Below are positions 16,881-47,211 of a DNA stretch of 64,000 nucleotides, in pieces. The position numbers were made by a program, and so were the translations under genes. The DNA is from Callorhinchus milii (taxonomy: Eukaryota). The notes under the pieces were generated by a model. It saw only the letters and a program-made list of their open reading frames with translations, had not been told where the DNA came from and did not search any database. Every line of letters starts with the position of its first letter. Within the stretch, counting starts at the first letter, position 1. The stretch lies in assembly GCF_018977255.1 (NCBI RefSeq), contig NW_024704761.1, forward strand, positions 1,860,001 to 1,924,000, written 5' to 3'.

Positions 16881-19800
16881 ATGACCAGTCTAATGGCCAG
16901 TTCCCTGCGGAGGCTCCGGGCTGTGTGGCCGGAGACAGGGACAGAGACAGGGACCCCAGGAGTCGGGCAGCAGGTACAGGAGCTGCATGTGCTCCAGCAG
17001 AAGAGGTGAGTGATCGGCCGGCTCTGAGCACTGCACTGCGGATAATAATAATAATATAATAATAATAATCCTTGCATTCGATATAGCGCTTTTCACATCG
17101 GGAGGACGTCCCAAAGCGCTTCACAGAACACACTGTAAAGTGAATTGACTGTATATTTGTGGGCGAACGCGGCGGCCAATTGCGCACAGCAATGTCCCAC
17201 AAACAGTCGTGGATTGAAAATGACCAATTTACTATTGTTTTTGGTTTTGGAGGGATTATTATTAGGCTCTGTGTGGAGTAAGGAAACTTGCCCAAGGTTT
17301 CGCCCTCTGCCTGGAATTGAACTCAGGTCTCTCACTTGCAAAGCGAGTGCTCTAACCACTGAGCTGCAGGACTCCAAGGAACAGGGGCAGGGAAGTAACA
17401 GCAGCAATAGCCCAGGAGAGACACACACAACACAGGTCCTCGTCAGATCGCTTTTCCGGGAGTAATAATCCCATCAAAAAAAAGTATTTAAAAAAAGATG
17501 ATGATTTGGTCACTTCAACCCCACGACTGTTAGTTTGTGGGACGTCGCTGTGCGCAATTGAATTGGCTGTCGCGTTTCGCTGCCCCCCCCCCCCACACAC
17601 ACACACACACAAAAATGTACAGTCAATTCACTTTACAGCGTACCCTGTGAATATCGTGTGTATCCCTCTCTAAAACCCTCGCTCTTTCGCTGTGCCTTTG
17701 ATCGTCTTGAAATTCCTCTGCTCGTTGCTCCCTCTCTGTCGTCTCGGGGAAACTCTCGAGGCCACTGATTGTACGTGGACAACAACCACAACAAAAGGCG
17801 TTTATGCCACGAAACTCATACGGCAGGGGTATGGGGGGGGATAAGGACAGGCTGACGCTCACTTCATCTCTGTAGCTCGAAGGTTGGCTATGGACTTAGC
17901 TTTAGTTCGATCCCAGCGATGCTGGTGTCTTCTCGGTCTCACTCTTGCTGTTGTTGCCCGCAGGATCAGCGAGTCCCCTCTCTTATACGCTGCCAAAGAA
18001 AACATGGTTCAGGATATCAAGAAGCTGATCCGATGCCCCTCGATCGACAACTTCCAAACAGGTGAACACGTTTTTCCTAAAGAAAAAGGGTCACTGCGGT
18101 TTGTTAAATCCGTTCTGTGATAGTCACAGGAGAGTGCCACATACCCATCCCTCCTCCCTCCGCACCACCATCAGTGACTGTGCCTTCAGCCACTTCGCCC
18201 CAAACCTCTGGAACTCTCTGCCTCGATCCCTCCGCCTCGCACCCCTCTTTATTCATCCCTCTTCGACCGCGCCTGTAGTCACCCCCCACCTCTCCACCCT
18301 CCCCGTTCTCCCTAACCTCAGCACTGTACGGTGCTCCTAAAACCTGGCTGAGGATCTGTTCACAGAGCTTGGCACAGGAGAGGACATGGGCTGCAGAGTT
18401 CTGAATGGTTTGCAGCTCGCGGAGGGAAGAGTTGGGAAGTCCTGCAGGGAGCAGGGAGGTAGCGTAGGATTATTATTGTTATTATTATTAGTGGACGCTC
18501 CCCCCACCACCCAGGGCTTTGGCCTGTCCACCTGCGTGAGGTCTTTCTCTGACGTTGCTCTCTCCGCAGGCACCATGGGGGAGACAGCACTGCACATCGC
18601 CAGCACGTACGGTAATTACCAGGCTGTAGTGACTCTTCTCGAAGCAGTTCCTGAACTCATCAATCTACCGATCACTGGCGAGCTTTACCAAGGTACACCC
18701 TGGCCTTTACCCTCGTCCTCCTTGTCAGTGATCTGCCAACAGGCTCCGATCAAAGCAATCAATAGAGGGACACACTTACTTGCAGCACTACAGTCCTCAA
18801 CCCACATTTAGTCTTCAGTCTTCCTCTATTCCAGAGGGACAGAGAGACATTACTCAAGAACAAAAAGACCGAGATTTTCCCTTAATCAATGTGTTTGCCA
18901 GGAGGTGGATGTAGGATATATTAAAGATACAACAAAGGCGTCTCAGACTGATTCCACTTTACTTAATGCAATTCGGCTCACTCACTCACTCTGTAATAAA
19001 CAGTGGTTTCATTGCTGCTACTTACCCACTCGCCCACCCCCCCCACACACCCCCCATCACCCCCACCACCCCCACCGGGCTCTGTAATTGTATATATAAA
19101 TATCGCAAGAGCAGCAGTACTGAAACACTGAAAGAGGCAATGATAGAACAACAGCCAAGATAAATAAATATATATAAATACACTCACTAAACTTTACAGT
19201 GTATCCTGTGAAGCGCTTTGAGGCGTCTCGGATGACGTGATGAGGCGCCGAGTCAAATGCCAGGATTATTATTATTATTATTATTGTACAATTGGTGTCG
19301 TGATTATGGCATTGAGGAGGGAGAGAGCCTGAGGCTCTGGGGTTGGACGGAGAACAGAAGTTGCCGTTTGGTTCAACAGGAGAAACATCGCTGCACATCG
19401 CGGTGGCGAACGGCAACGTGGGTCTGGTGAGAGAGCTGATCAGACGAGGAGCTGACGTGGTGACACCGCGAGCCACCGGAACCTTCTTCAGGCTGGGTGG
19501 CACCGGGATCCTTTACTACGGTAACAAGACGAGAGTTTGGGAAAATCAACACAATGATGCCAGTGTGGGGGGGGGAGGTGGGGGGTGGGGGGGGGATGGC
19601 GGGGTGTCAGCGCTCAGCTTCCCAGTTGGGGTGGAGGACGAGGGGTGGCAGCTGGTGGAATGTTATCTAAGCTCAAACAGTGGCTGGTTTGGTAAAGTCA
19701 CTGTTGATGTATTTAATGACATGGCTTTCAGTATCGATGCCCCCCCCTCCCCCTCCCCACCCACCCATCGGAACTCTCTCCTCGGTCTCACACCCCATCT

Positions 19801-21515
19801 CTATCCGTCTCTAAATCCCACTTTACAAAATTCACGTCCGCTCGGCTTTACAGTAAAAACCGTGCGGAGCGCTTGGAGAGGGGGAGCACTTTGAGGGCAA
19901 TTATCTGTCGGTAGTCATCTGTAAATGCACCAAAGGACAAGTTTGAGAACTTCAGTGAACGGTGCAATCTGATCCCGAGATCAGCTTCTGTGCTGGTTAC
20001 ACTGTGTTCCGTATCTGACTGGTTACTGATCACTGATGTCAGTCTGTCTCGGTTGTTTGACAGTGGTGCCCTATGAAGACAATCCTCCAGATATCTACAC
20101 GCCTCATTAGTTTCTCCTCAATGTTCTTTTCCCAGCCTCCGAGCAGCGGTGATTGAAACCCCGCATCATTAATCCTTTGGCCTTTATACAGGCTGCCCTT
20201 ATCTGTAGATCATCTCCCATCTGTTCTGTCCTCTCCTCGCGTCCAAGGTCCTGTACAGACACCGAGTGATAGCCTGACTCTCGCTGCCGCAGTCCTTGAA
20301 GCATTTGAACTCTGAATCAGAACGTGTTTCAGCTCGATCTGTGTTTCTGCACTAACGAGGGGCTCCGAGACCTCGCTCAAGCTGTTGTTGTTGTTGTTGT
20401 TGCCCCCCCCCGCCCGTTAGTTATTTCTGTGGCTGTTATCCCGTCTCCTACGCACGTCAACCCGGCTCAGTCCAGTGGCACTCTCGCCATGTTGAGTCAC
20501 AAGTCTGTGGGTTCCAGCCCCCGCATCGGGACTTTGAGCTCACGGTCCAGACTGACTGGTGCTCCGACGTAACGCAAGGAGGTGTTTTCAGGCGGAGGGG
20601 CAGAGAGGGAGGGGGTGAGGCGGAGGGGGAGAAAGTCGCAGGATTAGGGGCACCATGACTGAAGGTTCGGTCGCCAATGGTGACGAGGGGGGAAGGCGAG
20701 GGGGGGGATGCGCAGCGGCCAGGGTTACCTGAGCGGAGGAGTGGACAGTGGCGGTGGATGGGGTGGGGTGAGGTGGGTGGGGTGGGGTGGGGTGAGGTGA
20801 GGTGGGGATGGGGTGAGGTGGGTGGGGTGGGTGGGGTGGGGTGGGGGGGTGGGGTGGGGTGAGAGGGGTGAGGTGGGGGGGTGGGGTGGGGTGAGGTGGG
20901 TGGNNNNNNNNNNNNNNNNNNNNNNNNNNNNNNNNNNNNNNNNNNNNNNNNNNNNNNNNNNNNNNNNNNNNNNNNNNNNNNNNNNNNNNNNNNNNNNNNN
21001 NNNNNNNNNNNNNNNNNNNNNNNNNNNNNNNNNNNNNNNNNNNNNNNNNNNNNNNNNNNNNNNNNNNNGTGGGTGAGGTGGGGTGAGGTGGGTGGGGTGA
21101 GGTGGGGGGGGTGAGGGTGGGGTGGGGTGAGGTGGGGTGAAGGATACAGAGAGTCACAGAGAGAGGCAAGAGAGAGGCTGTTTCTGTCTCTACTTACGCC
21201 TCGTGATGCCCGGTGGCTGTGTCTCAGGTGAGCACGTGCTGTCCTTCGCCGCGTGTGTTGGCAACGAGGAGATCGTCAGGATCCTGATCGAGAACGGAGC
21301 AGATATCAAAGCGCAGGATTCCCTGGGTAGGTAGCCCGCTCACGGCTGTTTGCCTCGCGGCTCGTGATTGGCAAAGGGTAAACCAGCGAGGGTTGTCTCC
21401 ACTAATGATCAATAATAATAATATATTAATAATTATTAGCAGCGTCCCCACAAACAGCGGGGGGGGAGTGTGTGGAACCGGTTTTACCCTGGGGGGTTGT
21501 TGGCCAGGACACCAG

Positions 21516-21550
<35 letters not shown>

Positions 21551-24500
21551 TCCCTTCTTTTCTCTAATAGCGCCGCGGGATCTTTAGCGCCAAGAATCCT
21601 CCGGATAAAATTGGTCGCTCGCTCGCTCGCTCCACGGCTGCTTGTGGGACACGGCCGGGCGCAAATTGGCCGCCGCGCTCGCCTGCAAAATGCACAGTCA
21701 CTACGCTCGACCGTAAAAGTCCTGTGAGGGGCTTCGAGACAGCTGAACGATGTGCTAAGGCTGTGGTGTACGAATGCAAGGAATGTTATTGTTCAACGAG
21801 GGTGAGTGTGGAATAGAGAGGAGGAGGAGGAGGAGGGACACGGGGACAAGGAGGGGAAGCGAGCGTGTGTGGGCGTCTTCTCACTACTGATCCTCCCTCT
21901 CTCTCAGGGAACACTGTTCTCCACGTGCTGGTGCTGCAGCAGACACAGTTGCCGGTGGCCTGTCAGATATACGATGTCCTCCTGTCCTCTGAGTGGCCAC
22001 AGAACGAGGTCCGTCCCGACACCATCCTGAACAGGGACGGGCTGAGCCCCCTCAAGCTGGCAGCCGCCGAGGGCAACTTGCAGGTCGGACAGTCCGTGGC
22101 TGGGCAATGGGTCAGGGGCGTGGACGGTTACCAATGACTGTCCCACGTGCCAATCGCTGCGTTTGATACGGCGCCTGATCACGTCTTCTGGGCATCTCAG
22201 AGCACTTCACAGGATACACGGCGTAGTGACTGTATTTTGTGGGCGAAACACCCACAGTGTACAGTCACTACACTTGAGAATTCCCAATGAAGCCCTTGGT
22301 AACGTTGTGAAATCACAGCCACTGAATCCATTGCAATTATTATTATTATTATTGTTGTGATTAATGTTCCCCTCAGTCCTGTTGTGTTCAGTGTTCCCAT
22401 TGCTTGCTGTGTGTCAGATGTTTGAGCACCTGGTGAAGAAGCAAACGTGTGGTATGGAGCCCTTTGTCAGGCATCGGACCTCCACATACTACAACCTCTC
22501 CGAGATTGACTCCTGGGACGGCGACTGCTCTGTGCTCGACCTGGTGATCTCCAGCCATAAAACCCAGGTAAAAGCCCACCGGAGAGTGGAGTGGGCTATT
22601 GTTACGCAGTCGAGCACGTGGAGTCCTGGAGCTCAGTGGTTTAGAGCCCTCGCCTGGCCAGCGAGAGGAGCCGGGTTCGATTCCCAGCCAAGGCCAAAGG
22701 TTGGGCAAGTTTCCTTACTACCCGCACACACACGCACACGCACACACACGCCTGTTTACCGCGCAGTAAGTAGGAAATCGTTTGTTCCTACTCCACATTC
22801 TCCCCCTCCGCATTCTCGCTTCAACAACATGGTAAAGCGCCCTGGGACCTTGCCCTGCGTGAGGAGCGCTATATAAATGCCGCTGTTGTTATTGATAAAT
22901 CTCTTATTATGATTATTATTATCGATCGATCTCCCTCGTGTCCCGGTTCAGGCTCTGAAGCTGCTCCAGGTGGCTCCCGTGCAGCAGCTGATCAGTTTGA
23001 AGTGGGACAAATTCGGCAAGTGTTACTTCCGGCTGTTGTCCTGCACCTACCTCGCTTACATCATCATCTTCACCTGCTGCTGTGTCTTCCGCCCCCTCCA
23101 GCTACGGCCCGACAACGCCACCAATGATAGAGACACCACCATTTACGTGGAGAAGCCACTGCGGGTCTGTACACACCGCCTCTCCTCTTCTCAATTCCCC
23201 TCCTCTTCCCTCCACTCACTCGGCCTCCAGGGGGAGGGGGGAGACACACTTGTGAATAACTCCATGTGCTACAATCCTCCGGCAGATACAGAGAATACAT
23301 AATAGAACACATAGAGTCGACAGAGGGCATTAGAATTGTCATTTGCCTTGTGTATCTAGGACTTGGGCTTCGCTCTGTAACTCATTAAAACGCAGTCCGA
23401 AATAAGGTCCGTTTGTCCCGGCCGTTAACCACCACACCCCCTCTCTCTGGCAGGAAAGCTACCAGACCCCTGGAGACTATGTGCGTCTGGTGGGTGAGCT
23501 CATCAGCCTGTTTGGGGCCATCGCCATCCTTGTGATAGAGGTAAGCAACAGTCAAAGGTCTGGAACTCCCTCCGGCTCTCTCCCCCTCTCATTTTGTCTT
23601 TAATTCTCACCTCAAATCCCACCCCTGTGCCGCGCCCCCCCCCCCCCACCCCACCCCCTGACCAGCATGACAACAGCCCAACAACAACAACAATTTGCAC
23701 AGCGCCCCTCACGTAGGGTAGCGTCTCAGAGAGCTTGCCAATGGCGGAGCACGAGCCGGGCAGAGGAGGTGACCGCAGGCACGGTCAGTCAAAGAGGAAA
23801 CCGTTCAGGCGTGACCTGAGGACGGGAAGGGAAGGGGCAAGAAGGAGGGAAAGGGGAAGAGTGTTCCAGAGCTCTGGGGCGTAGCGGCTGAAAGCTCAGC
23901 CGCCCACGGTGGGTAGACTCATCATTGCTTCGTCCTCCTAGACGCACGACATATTGCGATACGGACCGAAGAAATACTTTGGCAAGTCAGTGCTGGGGGG
24001 GCCTTTCCACGTCATCAAGTGAGTTTCTTTTCTTTGCACCAATTCTGTTCTGACGATAGCAGTAATAGCCAGTGTGGGAATGGTCAGGGAAGGGCTCTCT
24101 CACCTGCGCTGTTTACATGGAGCAGTGCTGTGAGCCCCGCCAGCCCGCGAGTGTGACCTCGCTGCTCTGTCAGCTCTCCTGCTCACACACCCCGCGGTGA
24201 ACAAATAGCGTGAGAATTCCGGCTGTCAAAACACAGTTTCCACCGGTGTTGTCCCACATGGTGGTGGAATCTCACGCCGGGACCCTGATCCCACATCCCA
24301 CACTCTGCAAGTCACAGCTTTCTGCGGCGACGCACAATTAACCAACAGTTTCTCTCATTCAGCGTCTTGTTCGCGTGTTGCTTTTTGTGTGTGCATTTGC
24401 CTTACGCCTATCAATCTCTTTCTGACCCACTCTCCCGCATTGTTTTTCTCTCTCCCCCACAACACTTGCTATATTTTCCCACCCATTCCTCCCCTCCCTC

Positions 24501-26413
24501 TCCCCACGCCCCTCCCCGCTCTCTTCCCCCGGGCAGTGTGTCTATGGCAGTGCTGGTGCTGCTGGTTGTGTTATTGAGGTTGGCTGGGGTGGTGGGGCAA
24601 CCGGAGCCCATGTCGCTGGCTGTGGTGTTGGCCTGGTGTAACCTCATGTATTTCGCCCGCGGCTTCCAGCTGCTCGGACCCTTCAGCGTCATGATCCAGA
24701 AGGTGAGCAGCCCAGCCAGGAACACCAGGATCGTGCCGTGTCCAAGCCGGGAAGTGGGGCGATGCGGGTGGGGTGGGGGGGGGAAGAGCAAAAGTGGGGG
24801 CAAGTGAGGGAGTGGGGATGGGGGGAGGGGGAGCGAGAGGGCAGTGGGTGGGGGAAGGAGCGGGTGGGAGTGCGGTTGGGCGAGTTAGGGGGTGGGGGAG
24901 TGAGGGCGTGGGAGGGGGAGCGAGGGTGTGGGGAGTTAGGTGGGGATGTAATTTCTGCTGATGAGATTGTGTCTGTGACTCGGGACAGGTTCACTGGTTG
25001 CCTGAGCGGAGGTCGCACACTGTGTATCACCCACACCACCCTCTGGTGACCTGCTCTCTCTCTCGCTCTCTCTCTCTCCACAGATTATATTTCAGATTAT
25101 TCTGCCCTACCTGCTGCTCATGTTCGTTGTGCTGTTTGCATTCACATGTGGTAAGGACAGCCCAGCCCTTTCTCTGACACGCTCTCTCTCTCTCTCTTTG
25201 ATTCTCTTTTTCCCTCTCTCTGCCATTTCTGTCTCTCTCTCTCTCTCTCTCTGTCCTCTCCTTCCCTCTCATCTCTCTCCATCTCCTGGGTCTGTGCTGG
25301 GAATGACAGGACATGTCCTTGTCCCAGGTATCTACCTGTCTTTCCAAGAGGACCCCGACAAGTGGGAACGCTTCAGTGACTTCAGCACCACCCTCTTCAA
25401 CATCTTCATGCTGTTCTTCGGGCTGGTCAACATGCCGCTCAATGGGAAAATGCAAAAGCCGGACATGGCACAGCTGCTGTACACCGCCTACACACTCCTC
25501 GCCTTCGCCCTCATGGTCTTCCTCATCATCCACGTCATGTCCGAGCTCATCCGCAGGTTGATCAGGGAGCGGGACGAGATATGGAGAGGCCAGGTACGGA
25601 AACAAGTACATCCCCTGGCGCAGTGGTTAGCGCGCTCGCCTGGCAAGCCAGAGGACCTGGGCAGGGGTGGGGGTGGTGGAGAAACCTTACGCAACTTTCC
25701 TTACTCCACACACCTCTGTTTACCCGGCAGTAAGTAGGAACCCGGTTGTTAGTCGATTGGCAGATCGCTTTCCAGGGATAATAATCCCAAAAAAGAAACT
25801 GTTTATGGGGACGCCGCGGTGCATAAGTGGCTGCCGTGTTTCACCCACAAAATACAGTCAATTTACTTTACAGTATATTCCGTGAAGCGCTTTGAGATGT
25901 CTCGAAGACTTGATGTGGCGCTGTATCAAATGGCAGGATTATTATTGTTCCTGTTTTCCTGAAATCTTTCCCGATATCCAGGTGGCGGCCACCACATTGC
26001 TGCTGGAACGGCGACTCCCCAGATGCCTCTGGCCGCGACTGGGAATCTGTGGGACACCATATGGCCTGGGAGACAGCTGGTTCCTCCGGTGAGTTACCTG
26101 TCCACCTCCCCCAAGAGTGGACACCAGGATTGTTCACGCTGCGCACGAGGATTGCACACGGATTTAAATCCAGATAAGGGGAATTTCTCCCCATCAGTTT
26201 GCCGGGAGTTTCAGTGTGAACAGGGTGATGGGAACGGGCCTTGATGTCAGTGTGAGCAAAGCCCAGATTGAAAACAATCGGCTCAGCGATTCCGACAGCG
26301 TGGGGAGGAAGGGGAGGTGTGATGTCCTGCAAACTGAGCCCCGCTCACTGCCGTCTGTGTGTCTGTGTCTCCACAGGGTGGGCGACGGGAAGGACACCGA
26401 ATGCTGCCGGTGA
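16881..26413 (+). CDS. TRPV5/6 (ECaC)-subfamily cation channel, divergent paralog A; 15 coding exons, 643 aa
   Basis: Exons (all GT-AG, phases consistent): 16881-17005, 17964-18061, 18570-18692, 19380-19520, 21228-21326, 21908-22083, 22418-22567, 22952-23164, 23454-23540, 23942-24018, 24537-24702, 25084-25150, 25328-25593, 25982-26088, 26377-26413, totalling 1932 nt. Motifs: LLQQKR|ISESPL-type start, ankyrin repeats ([31 protein letters not shown]), S4 [20 protein letters not shown] box [26 protein letters not shown]. Exon sizes 98/123/99/176/213/87/77/166/67/107 match the TRPV5/6 gene structure. Confidence 0.95.
17041..17375 (-). mobile_element. tRNA-derived SINE, complete copy (TRPV-A intron 1)
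   Basis: Head GAGTCCTGCAGCTCAGTGGTTAGAGCACTCGCTTTGCAAG...GAGTTCAATTCC (A and B boxes); tail GTGAAGCGCTTTGGGACGTCC...GCGCTATATCGAATGCAAGGA(TTA)n. Dozens of fragments of this family occur throughout the window. Confidence 0.9.
20755..21140. repeat. (GGGGT/GAGGT)n G-rich simple repeat containing an assembly gap
   Basis: Direct reading; N run at 20904-21068. Confidence 0.95.
25614..25946 (+). mobile_element. tRNA-derived SINE, long form (TRPV-A intron 13)
   Basis: GGCGCAGTGGTTAGCGCGCTCGCC head, internal CAGTAAGTAGGAACCCGGTTGTTAGTCGATTGG segment and family tail. Confidence 0.8.
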
Positions 26414-28138: not shown

Positions 28139-31100
28139 TCAGTGCACATGGTGACCTGGTGATTTGTGGTTGGTGGGCCTGTGCCTCGGGCCGTGCGGCC
28201 TGGTGCCCGGGCTCAGGCCGCGTTTCCTGCCGTCGGCCTGTGGCTGGACCGCCCGCCCTGTCCTGGTCCAGTCTCCGGCCGCTCTGCTCTCTCCTGTCGT
28301 CAAGTCCCTGGAGTTGCTCGGGGCAGGTTTGTCATTCCTGTCCTCCACCCTGCAACGCAAGAATAAGACACGGATAAGATTCCTTTCCTCGTGTCCGATA
28401 TAAGATTTTTATTAGCCGTCCGTTGTCCTTCATAGAGCTTTGCTCTCTGGAGGTGAGGCACCTGATCACATCCTCTGGACGTAATGCTTGAGAGGGGACC
28501 TGATGCAGGTTAGATTAGACAATAAAAGCGCTTGATAAGGTGAAGGTTGATTGTCGGCCAGGACACGGGGACAGAGAAACTCCCTTCTCTTTGTGGGCAG
28601 TGCCACGGCACCTTTAACGTCCACTCACACATCTCACCAAATATACCAACTGTTGTCCAGTCCGACCTTCTCCCCCCAGGTCCCAGCTCGAGGCCACAGC
28701 AGCCGGGGCAGCCTCCGCTCCAGGTGAAGTGTTGACGCGATGACCTGTGAGGAAAAGAAGCCAGATCAGGGGAGTTCCAGAGGGTGGGGCCCACCAAGGT
28801 GGAGCGGGCAGGGTGGGGGATGCTGAGCAGGCCGGTGCTGGTCGAGCAGACGGAGGGGACAGGTTGGTAGGGTTTTAGGAGGTCACATAGATAGGGAGGG
28901 GCAAGACCGTGAAGGGATTTAAAGGCCAGGATTTGAGGAGACAGAACGAGCGGCAGGTACCTGCGCCCGGTAGATTCTGTTGCGGTTCGGGACCACTCGG
29001 CGTAGGGTCCCCGCGATCAGGTTGATGAGGAGAATGGCCATCATTTGGAAGGTCATCATGATGTAGGCCACGTACAGCACCTTGATCATGTAGGGTGTGT
29101 AGACCTCGTAGTTGAGCGGGATGTCCAGCAACCCGAAGAACAGCATGAACATCAGGAACATCTCGTTCTTGAAGCCGTCGAAATACACCCACTTTTTGGG
29201 GTCAAGCTCTTGGAATATCACGTACAGGCCTGGAACCAGGACGCAGACGCAGCCCTTTACAATTTATTTATTTGGTCGGCCGGATGTCTGGCACTCGGGG
29301 AAAACCATCACCGTTGCTTAAGAGTCTCCAAACCCCCCACCCCCACACACACACACACGGAAATCCCAGAGATAGATTGTTGGAATGGAATGCGCTCTCT
29401 CTCTCTCTCTCTGGAGGGACACATCCTGCTTACCTACATCACGCACACACCGACGTCTCAGGCACACACTGAAGGATTGGGGCCGGGGGGACGGGGGGGG
29501 GGGAGTGAACGGAGGGATTAACAATGGGCACCTGTTGTGAATCCCACAATGATTATTAACATCAGGAAGAGATACGGCATCAAATTCTCCAGAACAATCT
29601 GAGGAAAGAGGAACAAGAGCCAATGTCAGCATTAGACCAACTGCAGCCAACAATGTGCGGGGGGAGGGGGAGTGGGGGGGAGCGGGTGCAGTGGCCGAAA
29701 GTGGAGGGGAACTAACAGCGTAGAGGGAGCTTTACTCTGTCTCTAACCCGTGTGGACGGACAGCGTAGAGGCAGAATCGATGATGGCTTTAAAGAAGGGA
29801 ATTGGACAAATATCAGAAAGGGAGAAATATAAAACATGTCAGTGGGGGGAGAGAGCGGACGGAGATCGGTGAGGGAGAGCCGGCATAGACGCGAAGGGCT
29901 GAATGGCCTCGTGCTGTGCTGTCCATGCCCCTGGTTGTCTGATGGGATTGTGTGCGGCTGGAAGGCTGCAGTGTAACAGTGCAGTTGGCACGGACTGGGA
30001 TGGCTCACCTTGTGGATGAGGATGGAGAAGGTGCCGAGAGTCTGGAATCCGCGGGCAAAGTGGATGAAGTTGCACCAGGCCAGGACCATAGCCAGGGACA
30101 TGAAGATCCCCTCGGACCCCGCACTGCTCAGCCTGAGCACGAGGATCAACAGCACCAGACACGCATAGCAAATACTGTCCCCGGTGGAGTTCAGATCAGG
30201 GACACGGTAAAGCAGGAGGGGAACTCGTCAACCAGTGACTGAACCGTCGCCGCCAATAACAACAACAACTTGTATAGCTCCCTTCGCGCGAGGCAGTGTC
30301 GCCGAGCGCTTAACAGCAGCGGAGCCTGACGCCAAACAAATACTCTCGAAGAATTCCCGCCACTGATACAGCACTCGAACCTCTCAAAGCACTTCGCAGA
30401 GATAGAGAGCTGTGGGCACACTGCGCCAGATAATTTGCACACAGCAGCGTCCCACAAACAGCCAAGAAGTGAGCGGCCAATTTTATTTGAAAAATGAAAT
30501 GAAAACCCACGTACAAGAAATAAAATCTTACTTTTATGTATATAATAATAATAATAATCCTTGCATTTGACACAGCGCCTCATCACGTCTCCGAGATGTC
30601 TCAAAGCGCTTCACTGAATGCACTGTAAAGTGAATTGACTGTATTTTGTGGGCGAAACGCAAGGGATACCTCGAATATTACTCACTTTATAGCGTGGAAG
30701 GGTCCTCCGTAGACAGTTTTCCCAAAGTAACCGGACACTCCATACCGTACCATGTCAGAAATCTAGGCAGGAAAACAATACACGGCTCAACACAGAGAGA
30801 GAGCAAAGCTCAAATGCTGAACAAAACATAATAATAACAACAATCCTCGCATTTGATATAGCGCCTCATCACTCTTCACAGAAAATGCTGAAAAGTGGAT
30901 TGACTGTACGATTGTGGGCAAAATGCAGCAGCCGATCGACCTGAATGAGTAATGCTCCTCGATGCTCTGGTATTGGTAATCGGTGAGTGGCCCACAGGTC
31001 TCTTCGGTCCCGTTAGGAGGAGCATCCCAGCCCCTTAGACATCACTCAACCGCCACGTGCCTGGCAGCCATTTAGCAGCCGACTCTCCAGTCTGGGTTTG

Positions 31101-34100
31101 GAGACTCTTTAGTGTTCTAGCGAGGAATCTCCGTGTGTCAGGCACCCGCTGACCTGGCAGGTACACACACACACACGCACACACACACACGCGCGCGCGC
31201 GCGGCAGTGTAACCAGAGCCAGGTCCTCACCTCTATGAAGAGGATGGCAATGGCTCCAAAAACGCTGATGAGCTCTCCCACCAAGCGGACCTGGTCTTTG
31301 GTTGAGACGTAGCAGAGCTGGAACATAGTCACAGGCACAGGGTTGTTGGCGGTAATGATAATGATGATAATAATAATAATCCTTGCACTTGGTATAGTGC
31401 CTTATCATGTCCTTAAGATGTCTCAAAGCGCCTCACAGGACATACTGTAAAGTGTAGTGACTGTGTATTTTGTGAGCGCAACGCAGCAGCTAGCTACTTA
31501 CAAAGAGCCACGGAGTAAGTGACCAATTTAATCGGGGTGACTGTCAGCCAGGACACCGGGAGAGAGAAACCCCTTCCTCTTTTCGAATAGCGCCGCGGGA
31601 TCTTTAACCTCGCGCTTTCCGTTATCTTTCCCCTCCCCCAACCCCACCTCCATTCGGCTCCCACCCCCGGTCTGGGTGCTTGTCCTCCTGAAGTGAAAGG
31701 CTCTGGACGGGTGTAAGATGTATCATGTTGCATTGCATTGTACTGTCTGGTGTTGGCCGCTGATGGCTATTCTGGTGCTGACCTTCAAAGGAGCCTCCAC
31801 CAATAGCTGTGTGTCTTCGGGATCGGTGACCACCTCTGGCCGTGGGATGAGGGGCCGGAAGGTGCAGCAGAGGGTGAAGATGATGATGTAGAGCAGGTAC
31901 AAGACACTCAGACAGCGGAAGTAATACTTCCCGTACCTGTTCCACTTGAAACTAACCAACTCCTTGATCGGGTGAAGGTCCAGGATTTTCAGAGCCTGAG
32001 ACCCAGCAGATATAATAATAATAATCATTATGATAATAATAATTATAATAATAAAAATGAATATTGGCAATACTGATACAAATAATAACAATGATAATGT
32101 AATAACAATCCTTTCATTTGATACTGTGTCTCAACAGTTTGTCGAGAATGTCTCAAAGCACATCACAGGACTGTTAGGTGTAGTGACTGTGTATTTTGTG
32201 GGCAAAGGAGGGGGCCAATGTGCACATGGCAATGTCCCGTAAACAGCCATGAAGTGATTGAACAATGTTATCCGGGGGATTGTCAGACACAGAGAGAGAA
32301 ACTCCCTTGTCTTTTAGAATAGCGCCACCTGAACAGGGACCTTTGCACCTCTTACTCCGCTGTTACTCTGAACTCACACTGGATGTTTGCCAGGTCAGCG
32401 TCTCTGTCCGACATTCCCCTCTCACCTCAATCTCTTTACTGAACACAACCAGGTCCAGGACCGAGCAGTTGTCGTCCCAGGAGTCAATGCCGGAGATATC
32501 GTAGAAGGTAGTGGAGACGGATTGGAAAAACCATTGAAGACGACGTTCTCTCTTTCTCAACAAATGCTGAAACAACTGCAAGGAAAGAGCAGCAGCTCAA
32601 GTGGCCTGACCGTCCCCGAGCCCAGCGGAGTGCCAGCCAGGCCCTGCTCCAGCTCAAACCCCCACTGCTGGTTATGTGTCTAGATACTGGTTATTGTATG
32701 TGGGGAGTAGGGCAGGGACTCTGACATGGAAGTTAATGTGTGTGTTTGTGGTGAGATATGGTGCATTGCTTACAGTAATGCATCTTGCCTTCCAAGAGAG
32801 TCAGGAACTCTCCTCAAAGCCCTTCATGGGATTGTGAACCATATTGGTTAGAAGCTCATGATATTGCATAGACCACATGAGGGTTAGATTAGTTAGTCGG
32901 ACGGTCAGTCGGTCAGTCAATTAGTTAGTGATAGAGTTGGTGGCTTCTGTGAGTGAACTGTACATGTTCTATGATTCGCTGTGGTTCTGGGTGTGTGGGG
33001 AGCTGTGTGTTGGATGGGTTACATGGTCTGGCTAGTGGGCACGACTGTCCTGTGGGAAGCACTGAGTTAGCCTGGGTCTGTGTCCTGTCCTGTGTAATGA
33101 CGGAGTTGTTGTGGGAGCTCTGTCAGGTTCAGGTCACAGTGTTGTGTGGCTGCTGCGGGGGCCACAACACCCACCCTGTGAGCAGCTCAGGGTGAGGAGC
33201 TTTCATTCCCACCTGCACGTTGCCCTCCTGGGCTGCCAGTTTGAAGGGAGTCAGCCCAGCCTGGTTTGTCATCGTTTCCACTGTGGCCCCGTCTTTTGGT
33301 TCGAGGGAAAGAATCAAATCAAACATCTCCGTGACTTTCGTCTGGGTCTGGAGTACCAGGTGGTGGAGAACAGTGTTACCTGCAAGATGGCCAGAAGGAG
33401 TGACCCAACACAGTGTCAGACGGTCTGAGACTCAGCGTCAGTTAGACTGCTCCAGAGAACATCCTGTGCCCAGTGCCACAGAAGGAACTTGTTTAAGGAA
33501 TTCTGTACACTTTACCCTCGGTGAACAGGACACCCACATGACTTACCCAGGGAATCCTGTGCTTTGATATCTGCTCCGTTCTCTATCAGGATCCTGACGA
33601 TCCCCTCGTTGCCAACACACGCGGCGAAGGACAGCACGTGCTCACCTGAGAGAGAGAGAGAGGGAGAGAGAGAGACAGACAGACAGACAAATTAAAAGCT
33701 GCAAATAGAAACAAATAAATCTCTCTCTCCAAAAGGAAGCAGTGACATTGAGGTCTATGGGGAGTCACTAAAATCTTTTCTGCTATAATTTTAGATCAGA
33801 AAATTCCATATAAAGTATCTTAAAGATTTACTATTTGGAAGGAGGAAAACCGGTCTCTTTGGGGCTGAGCTGATTCCAAGTTAACACAGCTGGAGATGGA
33901 AGATGGGAATCGAGCCCACCCTCTGTGCCGGTCTCTAGTCCGGTTCCTGAGCCCGGCGGGTCCACAATATTCCAGGGCACTCACTGCTGATGACAGCACA
34001 GCCCGGCCTGGCTCTTCGGAAGGTCCCTGGAAGGGCCGACCAGTCACTGGGGGCAGGTACTCAGCTCCCACAAGATAAATCCCAGATAACATCCAAATTG

Positions 34101-36780
34101 TGCGCAAACCATTTTCATCATTAATTCAATAATAAAGACAACGTTTCCTCACAGTTTCTATTTTCCCGTTCCCGTTGAGCGCATTCACAAGGTCCCCAGC
34201 TCCAGATGTTTCTTTCCCGTCCCTGGTTCATTCTTCGTTGCTCACACCTCCTTTACCAACACACCACCCGGCCACCGACCTCGGTAACGCTACATACGGT
34301 ACCCAACAACACCCGTTCTTACCAAAGTGAAAGAGTTTCTTCGCATTCCTTCTGAAGAAGGTCCCAGTCGCTCGCGCAGTCACCACGTCTGCTCCTCGCC
34401 CGATCAGTTCTCTGACCAAACTCACGTTCTCATTTGCCACCGCGATGTGAAGTGCCGTTTCCCCTGATAAACAACCAAACGACAAGGTCACAGCCTGTGG
34501 ACAATAACAACAGTCCTTGCATTTGATGTGGCGCTTTATCACGCGGCAGTCAGTCCTATACCTTCATACATCTGGGAGGTGACCGGCACGTTGATGAGCT
34601 CTGGAGCGGCTTCGAGAAGTTCCGTTGCCACTTCACAATTGTTGTAGAGCACAGCGACGTGTAAGGCCGTCTCCCCCATCACTCCTACAGAGAGAGGAAC
34701 AGGCAACCTGTTACATTCCTTTCAACCGCTCGGTTACCGCTGACTTGCTGACGGAGTCCCTGTAGGGTAATGGTTAACGTGCTCGCCTCGCAAGGTTCAA
34801 TTTCCAGGCGGGGAGAAACCACAGGTAGTCACCAAATCTCAGGCTTTATAGACAAGAGGACTGACTATAAGAGCGAGTAGGTAATACTGGGTATTAGAGA
34901 TTAAATATTGAACTTGACTTCAATATTTGAAGTTGCAGTTGGAGTCTTGAGTTTGGTTTTGAGCCCATGACACATCGACACGAGAGTCCTGGAGAGGACC
35001 CAGCGGAGTTGACGAGGCTCATATCAGGGAAGATACTTTATCGCTATGGAAAGAGGCCTGAAAAGTTGGGAATGTTTGGATGTAGCTGAGAGGTTCAAAA
35101 GAAGTTTTCAAAAGTCACGAGTATCTTTAATAGGGAAAGAGATTAACCTCTGTGATCGATGAGGAGGGAGCAGGGAATGGGATTAGAGTAGACAGCTACA
35201 GTGGGGGAGCGAGCACCAGCACAGATGTGGTGGGTGGATCGAGCAGGTTTGACCAGTTCCAAGTTCCCTCATCTTCTCTTTCACCACTTTGTCTCTAATG
35301 TGATAACTTTCCCATGACATGACTTATCGCTCCTCATCGGGCTGAGCTGGGGTTTTTTTGCCTTGTTTTAACAATCCTGTACAAACAGTCCTACATTAGC
35401 AATTAGCTTCCTGGCTCTGACATTTGCAGTGAAACCCGTCAAGAGTAGGAATGACTCAGGGTCGTTATGTTGCAGGAATGACACGGTTTGGGGAGATGCT
35501 TCCCTGTTATTTCTGAGCTGCCGGTCAATCTTAAAACATTTATCAAGTTAGGTCCGCTAGGCTGACACTCCATTACAGTCACACTCACACACTCTGATTA
35601 CAAAGGTCAACAATATATTCCTTCATTGCATTTGATATAGTGCTTCTCATGTCTTCCGGACGTCTCAAAGCGCTTCACAGAATATACTGTAAAGTGAATT
35701 GACTGTTACGTTTTATGGGCGAAACGCGGCAGCCAATTGCATCTCTCACCTTTTTCAAAGAGATCAACTGTGGGACATTCAAGGAGCGTTTTAACAGCGT
35801 CCACATCATTCTCTCTGGCAGCCAAAAAGAGAGGCGTCTCACTGATCCTATGGGGAGAGGCCAGCGGTAAGAACAGCAAAGAGCAGCCATCAGCAGCCAG
35901 ACCATCAGTACAACAATTTACATCGATACCCTCCTGTGTTGCATTGTCAGAGGTGCTGTCCTTCAGTTGAAATCCTGGGCTGTCAAACCCCCAGAAAAAG
36001 ATGGAAGAACAAATCATCATCTGCTTCCCGTCGGCTTCTCATTATAGACTTTGCAGGTTTGGGATCGGGATGCCATCCGATATTCGGGAGTCCCGAGACA
36101 CAATTACCCCTTTAAATTAGACATTAAACCGAGGTCCCGTCTGCCCATTCAGGTGGACGGTAAAGATCCTGTGGCGCTATTCAAAGAGGGAAGAGAGTTT
36201 CTCCCTCCCAGAGTCATAGCCACTTTCTGAAGGAGATTGATGTTTTGTTCACCAGGTATTAGTTTGTCAAGTCTTAACAGCCCGTTTCACCAACGATTAT
36301 AGGAACTATGTTTGTTTTACATTGCCACATACATCCACATTCTCCCTCTTGTTGATCAATATATTTCCTGAATTTCTCCAGTTCCTTGTTTCACATCGTA
36401 ATCACTTGGGATGAGAGCCACATCGATAACACCACATATGCAATCGATTTGATTCTTTATGATACCTGGCCTGTTACAGCTGATTGTTGCTATAATTATG
36501 ATTATTATTGCAGTTCCCATATTATTATGTCGGAATATTGGGAAATAGCAGCGACTGCCAAACACCGAAGGGAAGATGTGATTCCGAGTCCAGGGAGCGC
36601 AGACCGGCAATCGCTGGGGAGATCAAGAGTAAAGCTGCTGTGAACTCACCTCTGGTTCTGCAGCAAGTGAAGCTTATCAATTCTATCCTGTAGCTCTTTC
36701 CCGGGCTGTAATCTGCAGCTCAGCTCCCTGGCAAACCTGGACAGGATCTCTCTCCCTCTCCCGGACAGGAATCCCGGCAT
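28139..36780 (-). CDS. TRPV5/6 (ECaC)-subfamily cation channel, divergent paralog B; 15 coding exons, 701 aa
   Basis: Exons (minus strand): 36780-36650, 35847-35750, 34684-34562, 34463-34323, 33645-33547, 33379-33213, 32575-32426, 31995-31783, 31317-31231, 30762-30686, 30174-30009, 29598-29532, 29229-28961, 28744-28638, 28349-28139, totalling 2106 nt with an open frame. Begins [16 protein letters not shown]...LHLLQNQR|[12 protein letters not shown]; filter [11 protein letters not shown]; TRP region NRNRIYRAQ. Same intron positions and phases as paralog A. Confidence 0.95.
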
Positions 36781-38309: not shown

Positions 38310-41300
38310 TCACTTCAGCTGGGTGAGTGACACTGTGACTCTGTCACCCACCCACAAGGCAGGGTACAGGGGCTCCACAAACACCGAGTCAAACCTGTGG
38401 ATCAGGGTCATGGTGTCGGTGACGCCATAGAAGGAGACGGTGCCTGCAGTGCAGTCCAGGAACACACCGACACGCCCATACTCGGCCGGGCTCAGTTTGG
38501 TTTCATGGCCGTTGTGCCAGGCAGAGTAACTCTGGCTAAACAGCTGCACGGCCCAGGATGCCCCGTTCTTCCCGATCCGGGATTCCTCCTTCCGTTCGAT
38601 CGTCTTGTAAGCGACCCCCACGAACACCCACTGATCGCTGAGCTTCATCTCCCAGTAATGCTGGCCCTGAGCAAAGCCCTGTGAGCACAGCACCTGCCAC
38701 TCGCTCTCAAAGCGCTCTGGGTGGGCAGGGCACTGCTGCTTTTCCTTGTGCGAGACCTTCCGCCCGGCCTTGGACACAGTGAGGGATTGGTGAGCAGTGT
38801 TGGCATCAAAGGTGAGCTGGCTGTAACCTGCAGGACACACCACAGATTATTACAGGACGGAAGGGAACTAGTGCCAGTGACGTTAAACTTATACAGTGAC
38901 ATCCCCCCACCACCCCTAACCCGGAGGAGAACTCCTGTAGCTCAGTGGTTAGAGCACTCGCCTTGCAAGCCAAGAGGACATGGGGTGGATTGCCGGGCAG
39001 GGCAAAACATTTGGCAAGTTGTCCTTACTCCACGCATCACTGAGTACATGTGTCACTGCCAATGACAACGGGTTCAGGCTGGGCCGCGATGCCCCGATCT
39101 CAGCTCTCGCTGCATTTGTAAGACAAGAATTTCAACTTACTGTGCAGGAACTTGCCCCTGATCTGCAGGTCGATGGGCAGAGACCGGTTTGGCCCAGCCT
39201 CACACCTCTCAGCCACCTCCGGACCTGAGAAAGTGAATTACATTGAAGAGGGTCACAATTGTGTATAATACAATTCTGTTCCCAGTTTTATGTAAAACAA
39301 ATACTTTTGATGAGCAATGTTATAAAACCGCACAGCTTGCCATTGAGAGCACTGCCTGGCAAGCTTTACCGCTGCTTGTCCAGCTCGGACCATCCTATTC
39401 ATTAGGGCTTTGCTTGCAGGGTTAACAGGAGCGGAGTGGGATGACTCCTTGTCCCAGTGACTGGTCTGCCCTTCCAGATCCTGTGGGTGAGTCAGGCTGG
39501 GCTGTGGTGTCATCAGTGGTGCCCTGCAATACCACGGACCCGTCTGGCTCAGGAACCGGACTAGAGACCATTGTAGAGGGTGGGCTCAGTTTCTCAGCTC
39601 AACTCTGTTTAGTCTCTCTCTCTGGTGTGTGATGGCCTTTCTGCTCTGGGCTGTGTTGGGGTCAGTTGTAGGGAGTTGGTGTCTAGTTGTGCCGGAGACT
39701 GAGATGAAAACCCACGTGACAGCTCAACGACACGGGAGCACCAGGGATCGGCATGTGGGGGTCTGGCAGAACCTCACCAGGAATCTCCTCTGCCCGCTCC
39801 ATTTGCCGGGACACTCCCTGCAGGTCTTTGTGGATCAGTTTGGAAATTGCCTCAAGTGCCTTCGTCACGCCTCCTAGCGTGGTGTCCAGGGCGAAGTCAC
39901 AGGGCACCCACACGGGCTCCTCACCCATCGCTTTCCACGTGTTTGTTTCCTGAGAGAACTGAGGCCGGGGGTAGCATATCAAGACACACGCACACACAGC
40001 AGAGAACACATAACATGATACAGTACAACATCACGTAGGGCTTCTGAGTCTCAGCGTGTCTTCACTGAAATGTGACTTGGGTGCATGGATGACTGAGGGG
40101 AGTTTCCCTGTATTGCGGGCCCTTGGCTCTTGCCAGCCTGCGCTTAATATTTTCCGGAATTAGGGAAGCAGGAGGGGTCCCTCCGGAGAGGGGGAGAGCG
40201 CGCATTCCATTCCAACAAACCCCGGGTATGTCCGTGTGTAGGTGCGATGCACGGACTCTTCGGAGCACGGCGGTGGGTTTCCACACGTGTCAGACGGACC
40301 GAAGCAACAGTACGGTAATTGAACCTGAATAGTTTTAATGGTGTGACCGACCCAGCGTCGGCGTGATCGCCCGGTCACCTGTATGATCTGCAGGGCGTCA
40401 CTGCACCTCAGGGTGGCTTCGAGCTGCTGTTTGCTGCGGCTCAGCCCGGCTTGCCGCTCCTCCAGCTTCTGCAAGACGCCGTCCGCCTGGCTCAGCGCCA
40501 TCCGTTCCTCGCGCTCTATCAGCACCGTCACCTCTGCCCCAGCCTCCACCAGCGCCCGAGCCAGCACCCCCAGCTTGTTCACGTAGTTCGTCTTGGCCTG
40601 AGAGGCCGAGCCCTGAGGGGTAAACCCCGAGAGAACAGCGACGGTCAACAATGCTCATACCTCCCTGCTATAATAATAATAATAATCCTTGCATTTGACA
40701 CGGCGCCTCATCACGTCTTCCGAGACGTCTCAAAGCGCTTCACGGGATACACCGTACAGTGAACGGACTGCGTATTGTGTGGACGAAAGATATTTGCCAG
40801 CAACGCTGGGCGCGACGCTTGGCTCCCCTCCCCGCGCCCCCTGGCCTCCCCTTCCCAAACCCGCAACGGCTCACCTTGACGGCTTCGACCCGCTCTTTAA
40901 TCTCTCCGATCGTCCTGTCGGTGCTCTTCAGCTGTCGCTCCATCTCCTCGTATCTCGCGATGAGTTTCTTCTATTTTTCACGACACGGAAACGGTGTCAG
41001 TGAAACCAAACAGCCGAGCGCCGCTTAATAAGAATCACAACCATAATCCTTCCTCCTCGCTGCTTGTGCTACTTGAAAAGAGCGTCCGACAAACTGCCGT
41101 GGATTGAGTGACCAAATTATCATTATTATTAATATTATTATTGTTTCGTAGTTTTTTTTTGGTTAAGACACTATTTACTCCTGGAAAGCCATCCGCCAGT
41201 CGTCTCAACGACTGGGGGCCACTACTCACTGCTGGACACGCAGAGGCACGTGGAGCAAAGGAAACTTGCCTCCCGCTTCGCCCGGCCCGAGAGACGAACC

Positions 41301-42073
41301 CGCCCGCGGGGCGAGCGAGCGAGGGGGGTGCCCTGTGTCAGAAACGCCCGCCGGCCCCGCGATCAGCATTCCTGCGTCTCCCCCGTCCAGAGGCATAACA
41401 AAACATTGACGGGTTATGTGGGGGGGTGGCGGGGAGCGGGGTGGGGCCAGTTGAAATGGAGGGAGGGCAGAGCGGGTGGGGGGGGGGGGGCCGGGTGCGG
41501 CCCGCGGGCCGCCAGTTGGGCCACCCTGAATTATTATCATCGTCAGTACACGGTGGTGGGGGGAGTGTGTACCTCCTGCAGTGTCTTCTCCTCCCCCAGG
41601 ATGGCCAGGTCGTGCCCCCGGTGCTGGGTGGCGGCACAGGCCGAGCACACGCCGAGCCGGTGGTCCCTGCAGTACAGATCCAGGGCGGCGCCGTGCGCGG
41701 GGCAGCGGGGGCCCGGCTCCGGGCCCAACTCCAGGCCCAGGCCCAGGCCCAGGCCCGGCTCCAGGCCCAGGCCCGGCTCCAGGCCCAGGCCCGGCTCCAG
41801 GCCCAGGCCCGGCTCCAGGCCCAGGCCCGGGCCCGGCCTCCCGCCGCGCCGCCGCCATCCCTCCACCACCTCATGCAGAGTGACGTTCCGGCTGAGCGGC
41901 AGCGGCCCCGCGGGGAAGGCGCGGCGGCAGGTGGGGCAGTGCAGGCAGCCGCCGGTCCGCTGCCGGTCGAAGGCGTCGTGGATGCACCGAGTGCAGAAGC
42001 TGTGGCCGCACGGCACCGTCACCGGCTCCCGGAACAGCTCCAGGCAAATGGCGCACGTCAGCCGCTCCTCCAT
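38310..42073 (-). CDS. TRIM65: Tripartite motif E3 ligase (RING, B-box2, coiled coil, PRY-SPRY), TRIM65-like; 6 exons, about 534 aa
   Basis: Exons 42073-41573 (MEERLTCAICLELFREPVTVPCGHSFC...CPTCR; B-box CPAHGAALDLYCRDHRLGVCSACAATQHRGH), 40970-40875 (96 nt), 40612-40379 (234 nt), 39949-39778, 39224-39141, 38827-38310 (LTFDANTAH...GQHYWEM...EPLYPALWV). The domain call is firm. The symbol rests on position next to MRPL38-FBF1 as in human 17q25; TRIM47 or another TRIM16/25-class paralog is not excluded. Confidence 0.8.
39325..39612. mobile_element. About 290-bp unclassified dispersed repeat
   Basis: Modules GCTGCTTGTCCAGCTCGGACCATCC and CTGGCTCAGGAACCGGACTAGAGAC recur at about 33880-34075 (inverted), 50430-50635 and 60775-61033. 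Confidence 0.6.
41711..41838 (-). repeat. Coding 18-bp VNTR, (EPGLGL)n, in TRIM exon 1
   Basis: GGCCCGGCTCCAGGCCCA units on plus; translates GPGLGLEPGLGLEPGLGLEPGLGLEPGLGLGLGLELGPEPGP. Confidence 0.9.
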
Positions 42074-42097
42074 CGCCGCTCCTCCATCGCCGCGCCC

Positions 42098-42325
42098 GGC
42101 GGGCGGGTCTGTGCGGGTGACACGCCCCCCGTTGGGCGGGTTTGTGCGGGTGACACGCCCCCATTGGGCGGGTCTGTGAGGGTGACACGCCCCCGTTGGG
42201 CGGTTTTGTGCGGGCGACACGCCCACCGTTGGGCGGGTTACACGCCCCATCGGGTGATTTTGTTTCACGCCGCCCCGCCGCCCGTTGGGCGGGTTTGGAC
42301 GGGTTTCACGCCCCCATTGGGCGTG
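42098..42325. repeat. About 31-bp GC-rich minisatellite immediately upstream of the TRIM ATG
   Basis: About 7 degenerate copies of GGGCGGGTYTGTGCGGGTGACACGCCCCC(G/A)TT. Confidence 0.85.
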
Positions 42326-43004
42326 TTGGTGCTGCACTGGTGACTGTGTGTTTTTGTAGGTGAACCAGAAACCCAATGTGCACACAGCGATGTTTACAAA
42401 CAGCCACCGAGGCAAACAGCCACTTTTATTTTGCGGGGATCTGTTCGCCCGGACAGCGCGAGAGAGAAACTCCTTCCTGTATTCCAATAGCGCCATTAAT
42501 GCACTTCACAGCGTATCCCGGGAAGCGCTTCGAGACGTCTCAAAGACGGGATAAGGCGCTGTAACAAGCAATATATTATTATTATTATTATTTCATCTTG
42601 AACCTCCGACTGTACAGGCAGATGGGACATCAGGTTAATCTCTCATCCAAAGGATGGCACTTCCGAGAAAACTACCCCTGCCCCCCACTCCCCAGCACTG
42701 TGCCACAACAACAACAACAACAACAAAATTACAAAACTTGGTGATGCTGGAGTGTCAAAGTCCAGGTGCGATGCTCGGACCCGCAGTGTTCTGACTCCGC
42801 AGGGAGAGTGCTCCGCGGAGCCAGGCTGACACACAATTCCTCAGTGTATTGAGGGATGGGTTTGAAACCCTAAAGAAAAATTCAGTGCTCTTTTGTCACC
42901 CAATCCACAGTCAGGACCAACACACACAGGAGACAGAGCGCAAGTTATCTCATGGGCACATTCCCATCCTCTCCAGGCCATAATCCCAACGTATTATAAA
43001 AATA

Positions 43005-46100: not shown

Positions 46101-47211
46101 ACCAGGCAGTCTGCTGCCTCGCTTTCTCCGCCACCTGCAGATAGCGCTTGTAGCTGCGGTACTTCTCCAGCGAGTCCAGGTCGTTCACGTCAATCTCCTC
46201 GTTGGGCATCGGTCCCAGAGGAGGAACTCGTTCCTCAGAGAGGCCGAAACAGAGAAATGTCGAACGGCAGACTCTGCAAAGCATCCGGTTACCGGACTTT
46301 AGAAATTTACAGCGGAGAAGGGCAATCTTCCGACTCAACGGAGCCAGAGCGCTACCCCTGGGCCGGGCTGACACTAAATAATCCTCACATGTGACGTGGC
46401 ACCTCATCCCTTTGCCGTCTATCCTGCGAAGCGCTTTTGAGACGCCGGGAAGACGTGAAAAGACGCTGTATCAAATGTGAGGATCATCATCATCACCATC
46501 GTGTCAAAGCGCTTCTCAGGATATATCACAGAGTGGGAGTGACTGTGTGTGTGTTTTGCGTTGAGTCACCAACTCTCCGCGGGTCGTGGCTCTATGCAGA
46601 CGAATTATAATAATAATAATAATCCTTGCATTTGATATAGCGCTTTTCACGTCGGGAGGACGTCCCAAAGCGCTTCACAGAATATACTGTAAAGTGAATT
46701 GACTGTATATTTGTGGGTGAAGGCGACAGCCAATTGCGCACAGCAATGTCCCACAAACAGTCGTAGATTAAAAATGACCAATTTATTATTGTTTGGTTTT
46801 GGAGGATTATTATTAGGCTCTGTGTGGAGTAAGGAAACTTGCCCAAGGTTTCGCCCTCTGCCTGGAATTGAACTCAGGTCTCTCACTTGCACAGCGAGTG
46901 CTCTAACCACTGAGCCACAGGACTCCGTTATAGCCCATAAGCCACAGTCCGACATCAGCCCATTGTTGTATTTAACATAATTTATCATTAACAATAACAT
47001 ATTACACCGCATTTACAGCGCCTTATATTGTAGGTGGGTTCTAGGCCGGGAGGGGGGCGGGGGGGGGGCGGGGGGGGAGGCCTGGGTTACACACTGGGCC
47101 CTGGGTCCCCGCCCTCCCATTGGGACCCCTACCCGAGCCTGTGATGCTCCTCAGCGGCTCCCGCACCTGCGACCGCCCGACAGCGGCCCCGAGCCTGACC
47201 AGCGCCGCCAT
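43131..47211 (-). CDS. MRPL38: Mitochondrial ribosomal protein L38 (PEBP domain); 9 exons; apparent 1-nt frameshift in exon 2
   Basis: Exons 47211-47133, 46273-46068, 45528-45397, 45219-45014, 44487-44415, 44283-44238, 44020-43862, 43706-43570, 43267-43131. Motifs [91 protein letters not shown]...TYGIY*. Confidence 0.95.
46606..46926 (-). mobile_element. tRNA-derived SINE, complete copy (MRPL38 intron 1)
   Basis: Collinear and highly similar to the copy at 17041-17375. Confidence 0.9.

Follow-up and report, generated by a model that had tools for sequence, protein, structure and literature searches.

Ca2+-selective TRPV5/6 channels show a PCa/PNa of around 100, inward rectification and constitutive activity, and TRPV5 and TRPV6 form mixed tetramers. 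In insects, the TRPV pair Nanchung/Inactive is an obligate heteromer. The two genes described here, A and B, would resemble this pair if, as we propose, two diverged TRPV genes act as one channel; the insect proteins differ in belonging to the TRPVA/B clades, other than the clade of A and B (PMC9664204).

The mutant data with which we compare A and B come from mammalian channels, whose filter backbone differs (Thr539, Gly543). Rabbit TRPV5 D542N is reported to conduct and to lose slow Mg2+ inhibition (PMC2266600), whilst mouse TRPV6 D541A is reported to be Mg2+-insensitive with poor Ca2+ permeation, three other pore acids being irrelevant for Mg2+ gating (PMC2217333). At the gate, human TRPV6 D489A, D489N and D489E gave no current and the D489-D580 site binds inhibitory Mg2+ (PMC12592368), four W583 residues of TRPV6 cage calmodulin K115 (PMC6093632), and non-aromatic mutants of TRPV5 W583 raised Ca2+ influx (PMC5379628). 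N572 is a cation site in simulations (10.1101/2022.04.01.486690), and TRPV1 N676A is reported as non-functional (PMC3707783 and PMC9242649).

Genes A and B themselves are not new, having been named and catalogued as calcium-selective TRPV5/6 duplicates. They are the chTRPV5-2 (XP_007886999) and chTRPV5-3 (XP_007886998) of Table S1 in PMC9664204 and the ‘chondrichthyan TRPV5/6 lineage’ genes of PMC7250927, and both reports class gene A as calcium-selective by descent. The accessible portions of these reports treat the genes by tree, synteny and expression and are silent on the changes in filter and gate, and ‘D542’ is absent from the main text of both. Full-text literature searches, which mostly did not extend to subscription journals, found no paper on the D542N change of A.

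Both genes lie in the window, the whole 64,000-nucleotide stretch of Callorhinchus milii (elephant shark) DNA analysed here. The features discussed below are as follows, with residues numbered after human TRPV6.

16881 to 26413, forward strand: gene A (chTRPV5-2), 15 coding exons, 643 amino acids, frame intact
21228 to 21326, forward strand: exon 5 of A, with 97% DNA identity to exon 5 of B (33645 to 33547, reverse strand)
25084 to 25150, forward strand: exon 12 of A, start of S5, with Ile at the D489 position and Pro at R492
25328 to 25593, forward strand: exon 13 of A, encoding the turret, pore helix, filter, S6 and TRP helix
25429 to 25431, forward strand: filter codon AAC of A, Asn at the TRPV6 D542 position, assigned from the alignment, sequencing-run contigs and orthologues
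25447 to 25458, forward strand: K548-M549-Q550-K551, a species-private outer-pore stretch of A
26377 to 26413, forward strand: final coding exon of A, 12 codons followed by the stop
28139 to 36780, reverse strand: gene B (chTRPV5-3), 15 coding exons, 701 amino acids, convergent with A
28961 to 29229, reverse strand: exon 13 of B, with the D542 filter (GAC at 29125 to 29123) and S6 residues I572, G580 and R583

The gene models matched Callorhinchus milii proteins letter for letter, A matching XP_007886999.2 (P0012) and B matching XP_007886998.1 (P0347), with AG/GT at every internal junction and both frames open. Pfam gave ankyrin matches, and gene A has the TRPV fold of ankyrin repeats, S1-S6 and TRP helix. 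A structure model of A built from 74 sequences had a pLDDT of 78 (54.7 for an earlier model from 10 sequences), with low-confidence blocks of 49–65 in the filter region. TRPV5/6 structures made up all 50 among the matches listed for this model, the best being human TRPV6 7s88 (TM 0.83, 50% identity). The model thus agrees with the TRPV5/6 fold, is weak at the filter and is uninformative on function.

Exon 13 of A encodes N542, F572, H576, E580, L581 and R583. Its alignment to solved TRPV5/6 chains was gap-free from pore helix to TRP helix, so the Asn of A sits at D542. Direct reading of the window confirmed what the sequence-only reading had given, namely AAC in A (forward strand) and GAC in B (reverse strand), both translations, and the numbering of N542, K548, Q550 and K551 against human TRPV6. 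That reading had also asked whether the codon would hold up in reads and in other species, and it did so in both. The codon was covered by contigs of 4/4 sequencing runs (three studies) with no alternative letter, although run contigs drop rare variants and one of the four runs is possibly the source of the assembly. Two spliced contigs, from runs presumed to be RNA, showed 0 differences across the exon stretch that they covered.

Across cartilaginous fishes, position 542 was Asn in 23/23 A proteins (elephant shark and 22 sharks and rays) and Asp in 20/20 B proteins. Counts are of one protein per species, with isoforms, duplicates and truncated models removed and some species assignments provisional. 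The Asn might be suspected of being an assembly error, a rare allele or a sign of gene decay, given the long branch of the window's A protein (0.57 in a quick IQ-TREE) and its shortened tail; however, the agreement of four runs, the Asn shared by every species and the intact 15-exon frame leave this explanation with practically no probability, and the cross-species alignment refutes it. The tail itself is short in Callorhinchus milii only, among the proteins aligned: the distal calmodulin-binding part is missing, unlike the long tail of elasmobranch A proteins, and a spliced contig supports the early stop, extending from exon 14 past it to 26453.

Within A, conservation was highest in the segment at 526–546, comprising pore helix and filter (mean identity 96% in 17 elasmobranch A proteins; 79% for the ankyrin domain of elasmobranch A proteins). 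This is a sign of selection on the new pore, and with Asn542 in all A orthologues it marks the Asn as old and maintained. The filter of B, Gly-Leu-Leu-Asp-Ile-Pro, is that of coelacanth and of the canonical ray copy, and by this comparison B holds the ancestral fish filter; the TRPV6 filter used in the earlier comparison (Thr-Ile-Ile-Asp-Gly) is a tetrapod-specific form. The change in A shares the neutral residue in the filter ring with the laboratory mutants TRPV5 D542N and TRPV6 D541A. Unlike them it arose in nature, is fixed throughout the class, stands within a Gly-Leu-Val-Asn-Met filter and goes together with a rebuilt S5/S6 gate.

The outer pore of A behaved differently from the filter. 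K548, Q550 and K551 were each found in 1/23 A proteins, that of Callorhinchus milii alone, whereas 22/23 carry E548 and 23/23 carry D553. Net charge over 543–553 was +1 in Callorhinchus milii A and −2 in 18/18 elasmobranch A proteins, and that of the A turret (513–525) was −3. The ‘basic outer pore’ that had been attributed to the gene is therefore a trait of one species. Nor did the part of the interpretation that rested on Lys548, Lys551 and Gln550 hold up: these residues are species-private, D550 is missing also from 6/6 canonical fish TRPV5/6 proteins and from the B protein of the window, and mouse TRPV6 D549A, mutated at the D550 site, retains wild type Mg2+ gating (PMC2217333).

The retained acids bear on whether A could still be Ca2+-selective, with E548, D553 and the turret acids compensating for the lost aspartate. 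The near-universal E548 and invariant D553 are in keeping with this, as are the gene's expression in gill and its classification, by descent, among calcium-selective channels (PMC9664204, PMC7250927). Neutralizing D541 of mouse TRPV6 nevertheless removed Mg2+ block and most Ca2+ permeation (PMC2217333), and the proposed compensating E548 is missing in Callorhinchus milii; we consider retained selectivity improbable. By analogy with the D542N and D541A mutants, reduced Ca2+ selectivity and weaker Mg2+ block of A are well motivated: a neutral 542 ring would weaken Mg2+ block and probably Ca2+ permeation too, and it seems fairly likely that channels containing A, if they conduct, would be less Ca2+-selective.

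The sequence-only reading had placed A beside a Ca2+-selective partner, B. As a partner of that kind B is not an ordinary one: although it keeps D542, it has lost D489, N572 and W583 just as A has. These three residues were kept by 0/43 A and B proteins and by 6/6 canonical fish proteins, and tetrapod proteins kept them in 90/90, 90/90 and 89/90 cases, respectively; N572 was also kept in 69/72 distant TRPV segments (149 distant representatives scanned). At 489, A proteins carry Ile (23/23) and B proteins Lys (19) or Asn (1) among 20; at 572, A has Phe and B has Ile; and at 583 Arg was found in 21/23 A proteins (Gln in 2) and in 20/20 B proteins. D542, I572 and R583 were each present in 20/20 B proteins. 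In addition, T581 is replaced by Leu in A and D580 by Gln, His or Gly in B.

A thus lacks the 542 aspartate ring, the W583 cage, the D489-T581 and D489-D580 contacts and N572 of Ca2+-selective TRPV5/6, whilst B has the aspartate ring and lacks the W583 cage, D489, D580 and N572. The two share fold and clade with mammalian TRPV5/TRPV6, and K484 and most I575 are kept; unlike the mammalian proteins, A is without D542 and T581, B is without D580, and both are without D489, N572, W583 and E535. By these alignments both A and B have rebuilt the lower pore, and the gate changes are of more interest than the lysines. An acid at 580 is kept in 23/23 A proteins, and E488, one place upstream of D489, occurs in 22/23 A and 20/20 B proteins and may in part replace D489, so the alteration of the gate may be smaller than it appears. 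Two further observations concern this region. Pro occupies the S5 R492 position in 19/19 A proteins and in the B protein of the window (exon 12, 29598 to 29532), where it may kink the helix, and Lys489 of B looks complementary to Glu580 of A.

Two further explanations need weighing. A alone might form a homotetrameric, Mg2+-insensitive and mainly monovalent channel, with B a separate Ca2+ channel of changed gate. Homomers of rabbit TRPV5 D542N conduct, Asn542 recurs in other vertebrate copies (see below), and an identity of only 33% between the S6 of A and that of B could hinder mixing. We rate this explanation as possible but rather on the unlikely side: Ile489 and Phe572 occupy positions at which one substitution suffices to silence TRPV6 or TRPV1, the same losses in B suggest a shared job, and the pair is apparently kept on one contig (19 assemblies).

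Alternatively, A and perhaps B could carry no current themselves and serve to silence, traffic or tune another channel, either the canonical chTRPV5-1 or TRPV7/8. The contacts that hold TRPV6 open are removed with D489, T581 (in A) and N572, the A tail is shortened in Callorhinchus milii, and Pfam Ion_trans, which matches the canonical copy, gave no match in A or in the B-type C-terminal half. We nevertheless regard this as unlikely, because the most conserved region of A is the pore helix and filter, for which a silent scaffold has no obvious need, and because the pair has been retained in the absence of the canonical copy, though with TRPV7/8 genes still present.

In a quick IQ-TREE, A and B were sister clades (support 100), each spanning holocephalan and elasmobranchs, and by this tree the pair arose by one duplication. 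With midpoint rooting, A and B fell among 31 TRPV5/6 rows split at 100 from a pair on contig C11, and the canonical ray copy had no firm place. Assignment of A and B to TRPV7/TRPV8 was rejected by the accession match and the tree. The C11 pair, of TRPV7/8 type, was found in searches of the Callorhinchus milii genome, which besides A and B also returned a partial gene on contig C740 and weaker matches on C8 and C10. TRPV7/TRPV8 resemble A/B in being a tandem pair in the Callorhinchus milii genome with a Gly-Leu-x-acid filter and gill expression; the differences are that N572 and an acid at 542 have been kept in the C11 pair and that A and B group elsewhere. One C11 gene (C11:18380475-18380717) has Glu at the 542 site, and a TRPV7/8-type representative (P0157) has Ala there. 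The C740 gene was considered as a canonical TRPV5/6 and rejected, since most of its exons scored higher to TRPV7/8-type queries. It is a partial third gene of that type (C740:576-19333, on a 41-kb contig) in which no pore exon was found; one TRPV7 and one TRPV8 have been counted in Callorhinchus milii (PMC9664204). These genome searches, in an assembly that is possibly incomplete, did not find a canonical TRPV5/6 copy, which is described as lost in elephant shark and whale shark (PMC9664204). The A/B pair therefore persists without the canonical copy.

The locus does not lie in the EPHB6-KEL position, its neighbors on one side being a TRIM gene and an FBF1-like gene. The former (38310 to 42505, reverse strand) encodes RING, B-box and PRY-SPRY domains, the RING being followed by a short repeat insert, and the latter lies at 49446 to 49787 (reverse strand). 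Open reading frames at 45005 to 46470 gave no Pfam match; we take them to resemble MRPL38. Both chTRPV5-2 and chTRPV5-3 have been described as translocated (PMC9664204).

An A-type and a B-type protein lay apparently on the same contig in 19 assemblies, often under consecutive accession numbers; adjacency itself was seen in this window only, and one further species has both proteins. B was not seen in 3/23 species having A in a search among 30 candidates. Linkage of tandem duplicates has many possible reasons, which limits its weight as an argument for a heteromer. In bulk tissue of Callorhinchus milii both genes are mainly gill-expressed (PMC7250927), and in catshark all three copies are highest in gill, with the paralogues differing outside it (PMC11979771).

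Exon 5 stood apart from the rest of the pair. The remaining 13 A/B exon pairs compared had 53–73% DNA identity, and the near-identity of exon 5 is likely the trace of gene conversion between the two genes. UniRef V9KEJ8 (P0029) is a chimera with an A front and a B back, switching at exon 5. An inversion exchanging the halves of the two genes can be rejected in this window, where each N-terminal half groups with its own orthologues.

Asn at 542 was also found in six vertebrate TRPV5/6 segments among the 72 distant TRPV segments (a Polypterus copy, Monopterus, Channa, Leptobrachium, Ascaphus and Hyperolius) and in 2/90 tetrapod matches, both caecilian. In a FastTree, in which three Polypterus rows fill only 24% of columns, the Asn542 rows were scattered among relatives with Asp at five or more places (support 95–100), and on this tree vertebrate TRPV5/6 acquired Asn at 542 no fewer than five times. 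An Asp542 copy is retained as well in the three genera checked for one, Polypterus, Rhinatrema and Leptobrachium. The Polypterus Asn copy carries Phe572, like A, and the five other segments keep N572; given such copies with an ordinary gate, Asn alone does not imply a partner. Asp to Asn is one transition, so mutational ease explains part of the recurrence. The caecilian Rhinatrema copies (P0084, P0139) combine Asn542 with a new Asp540, as if the acid had moved two places down the filter.

As A and B have lost the same gate contacts and share contig and tissue, we take one mixed channel to be the most likely arrangement. Our preferred, still tentative, explanation is that A is a neutral-filter subunit that likely joins B in a cation channel of the gill, which would have reduced Ca2+ selectivity, reduced Mg2+ block and no calmodulin plug. 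A mixed A/B tetramer would have fewer than four filter carboxylates and so a weaker hold on Ca2+ and Mg2+. With arginine at 583, the tryptophan cage entered by calmodulin K115 would be gone, so that calmodulin plugging would not occur. Without D489 and N572 the gate would not be opened by the TRPV6 route, and the channel may need a partner or another stimulus. A complex prediction for 2 A and 2 B membrane segments scored 0.29 against a mark of 0.34, without alignments or folded controls, and counts neither for nor against co-assembly. A broader form of the proposal, to which we give a minority chance, is that chTRPV5-2/chTRPV5-3 form an obligate two-subunit channel whose filter mixes Asn and Asp and whose gate dispenses with calmodulin plugging and with the near-universal S6 asparagine of TRP channels, and that Asp-to-Asn is a repeated exit of spare TRPV5/6 copies (in sharks, bichirs, swamp eel and snakehead, frogs, and caecilians) from pure Ca2+ uptake to another ion job.

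A and B are the only TRPV5/6-clade genes found in elephant shark, and both are filed as calcium-selective. If A lacks Ca2+ selectivity and both gate differently, Ca2+ handling in the cartilaginous-fish gill needs rethinking, and TRPV7/8 would become candidates for the classical Ca2+ role. For the family, the pair offers a natural test of the number of filter carboxylates required for Ca2+ selectivity and of whether a TRP pore is able to open once the S6 asparagine and S5 aspartate are gone, with the repeated Asp-to-Asn changes in other vertebrate copies as independent natural replicates.
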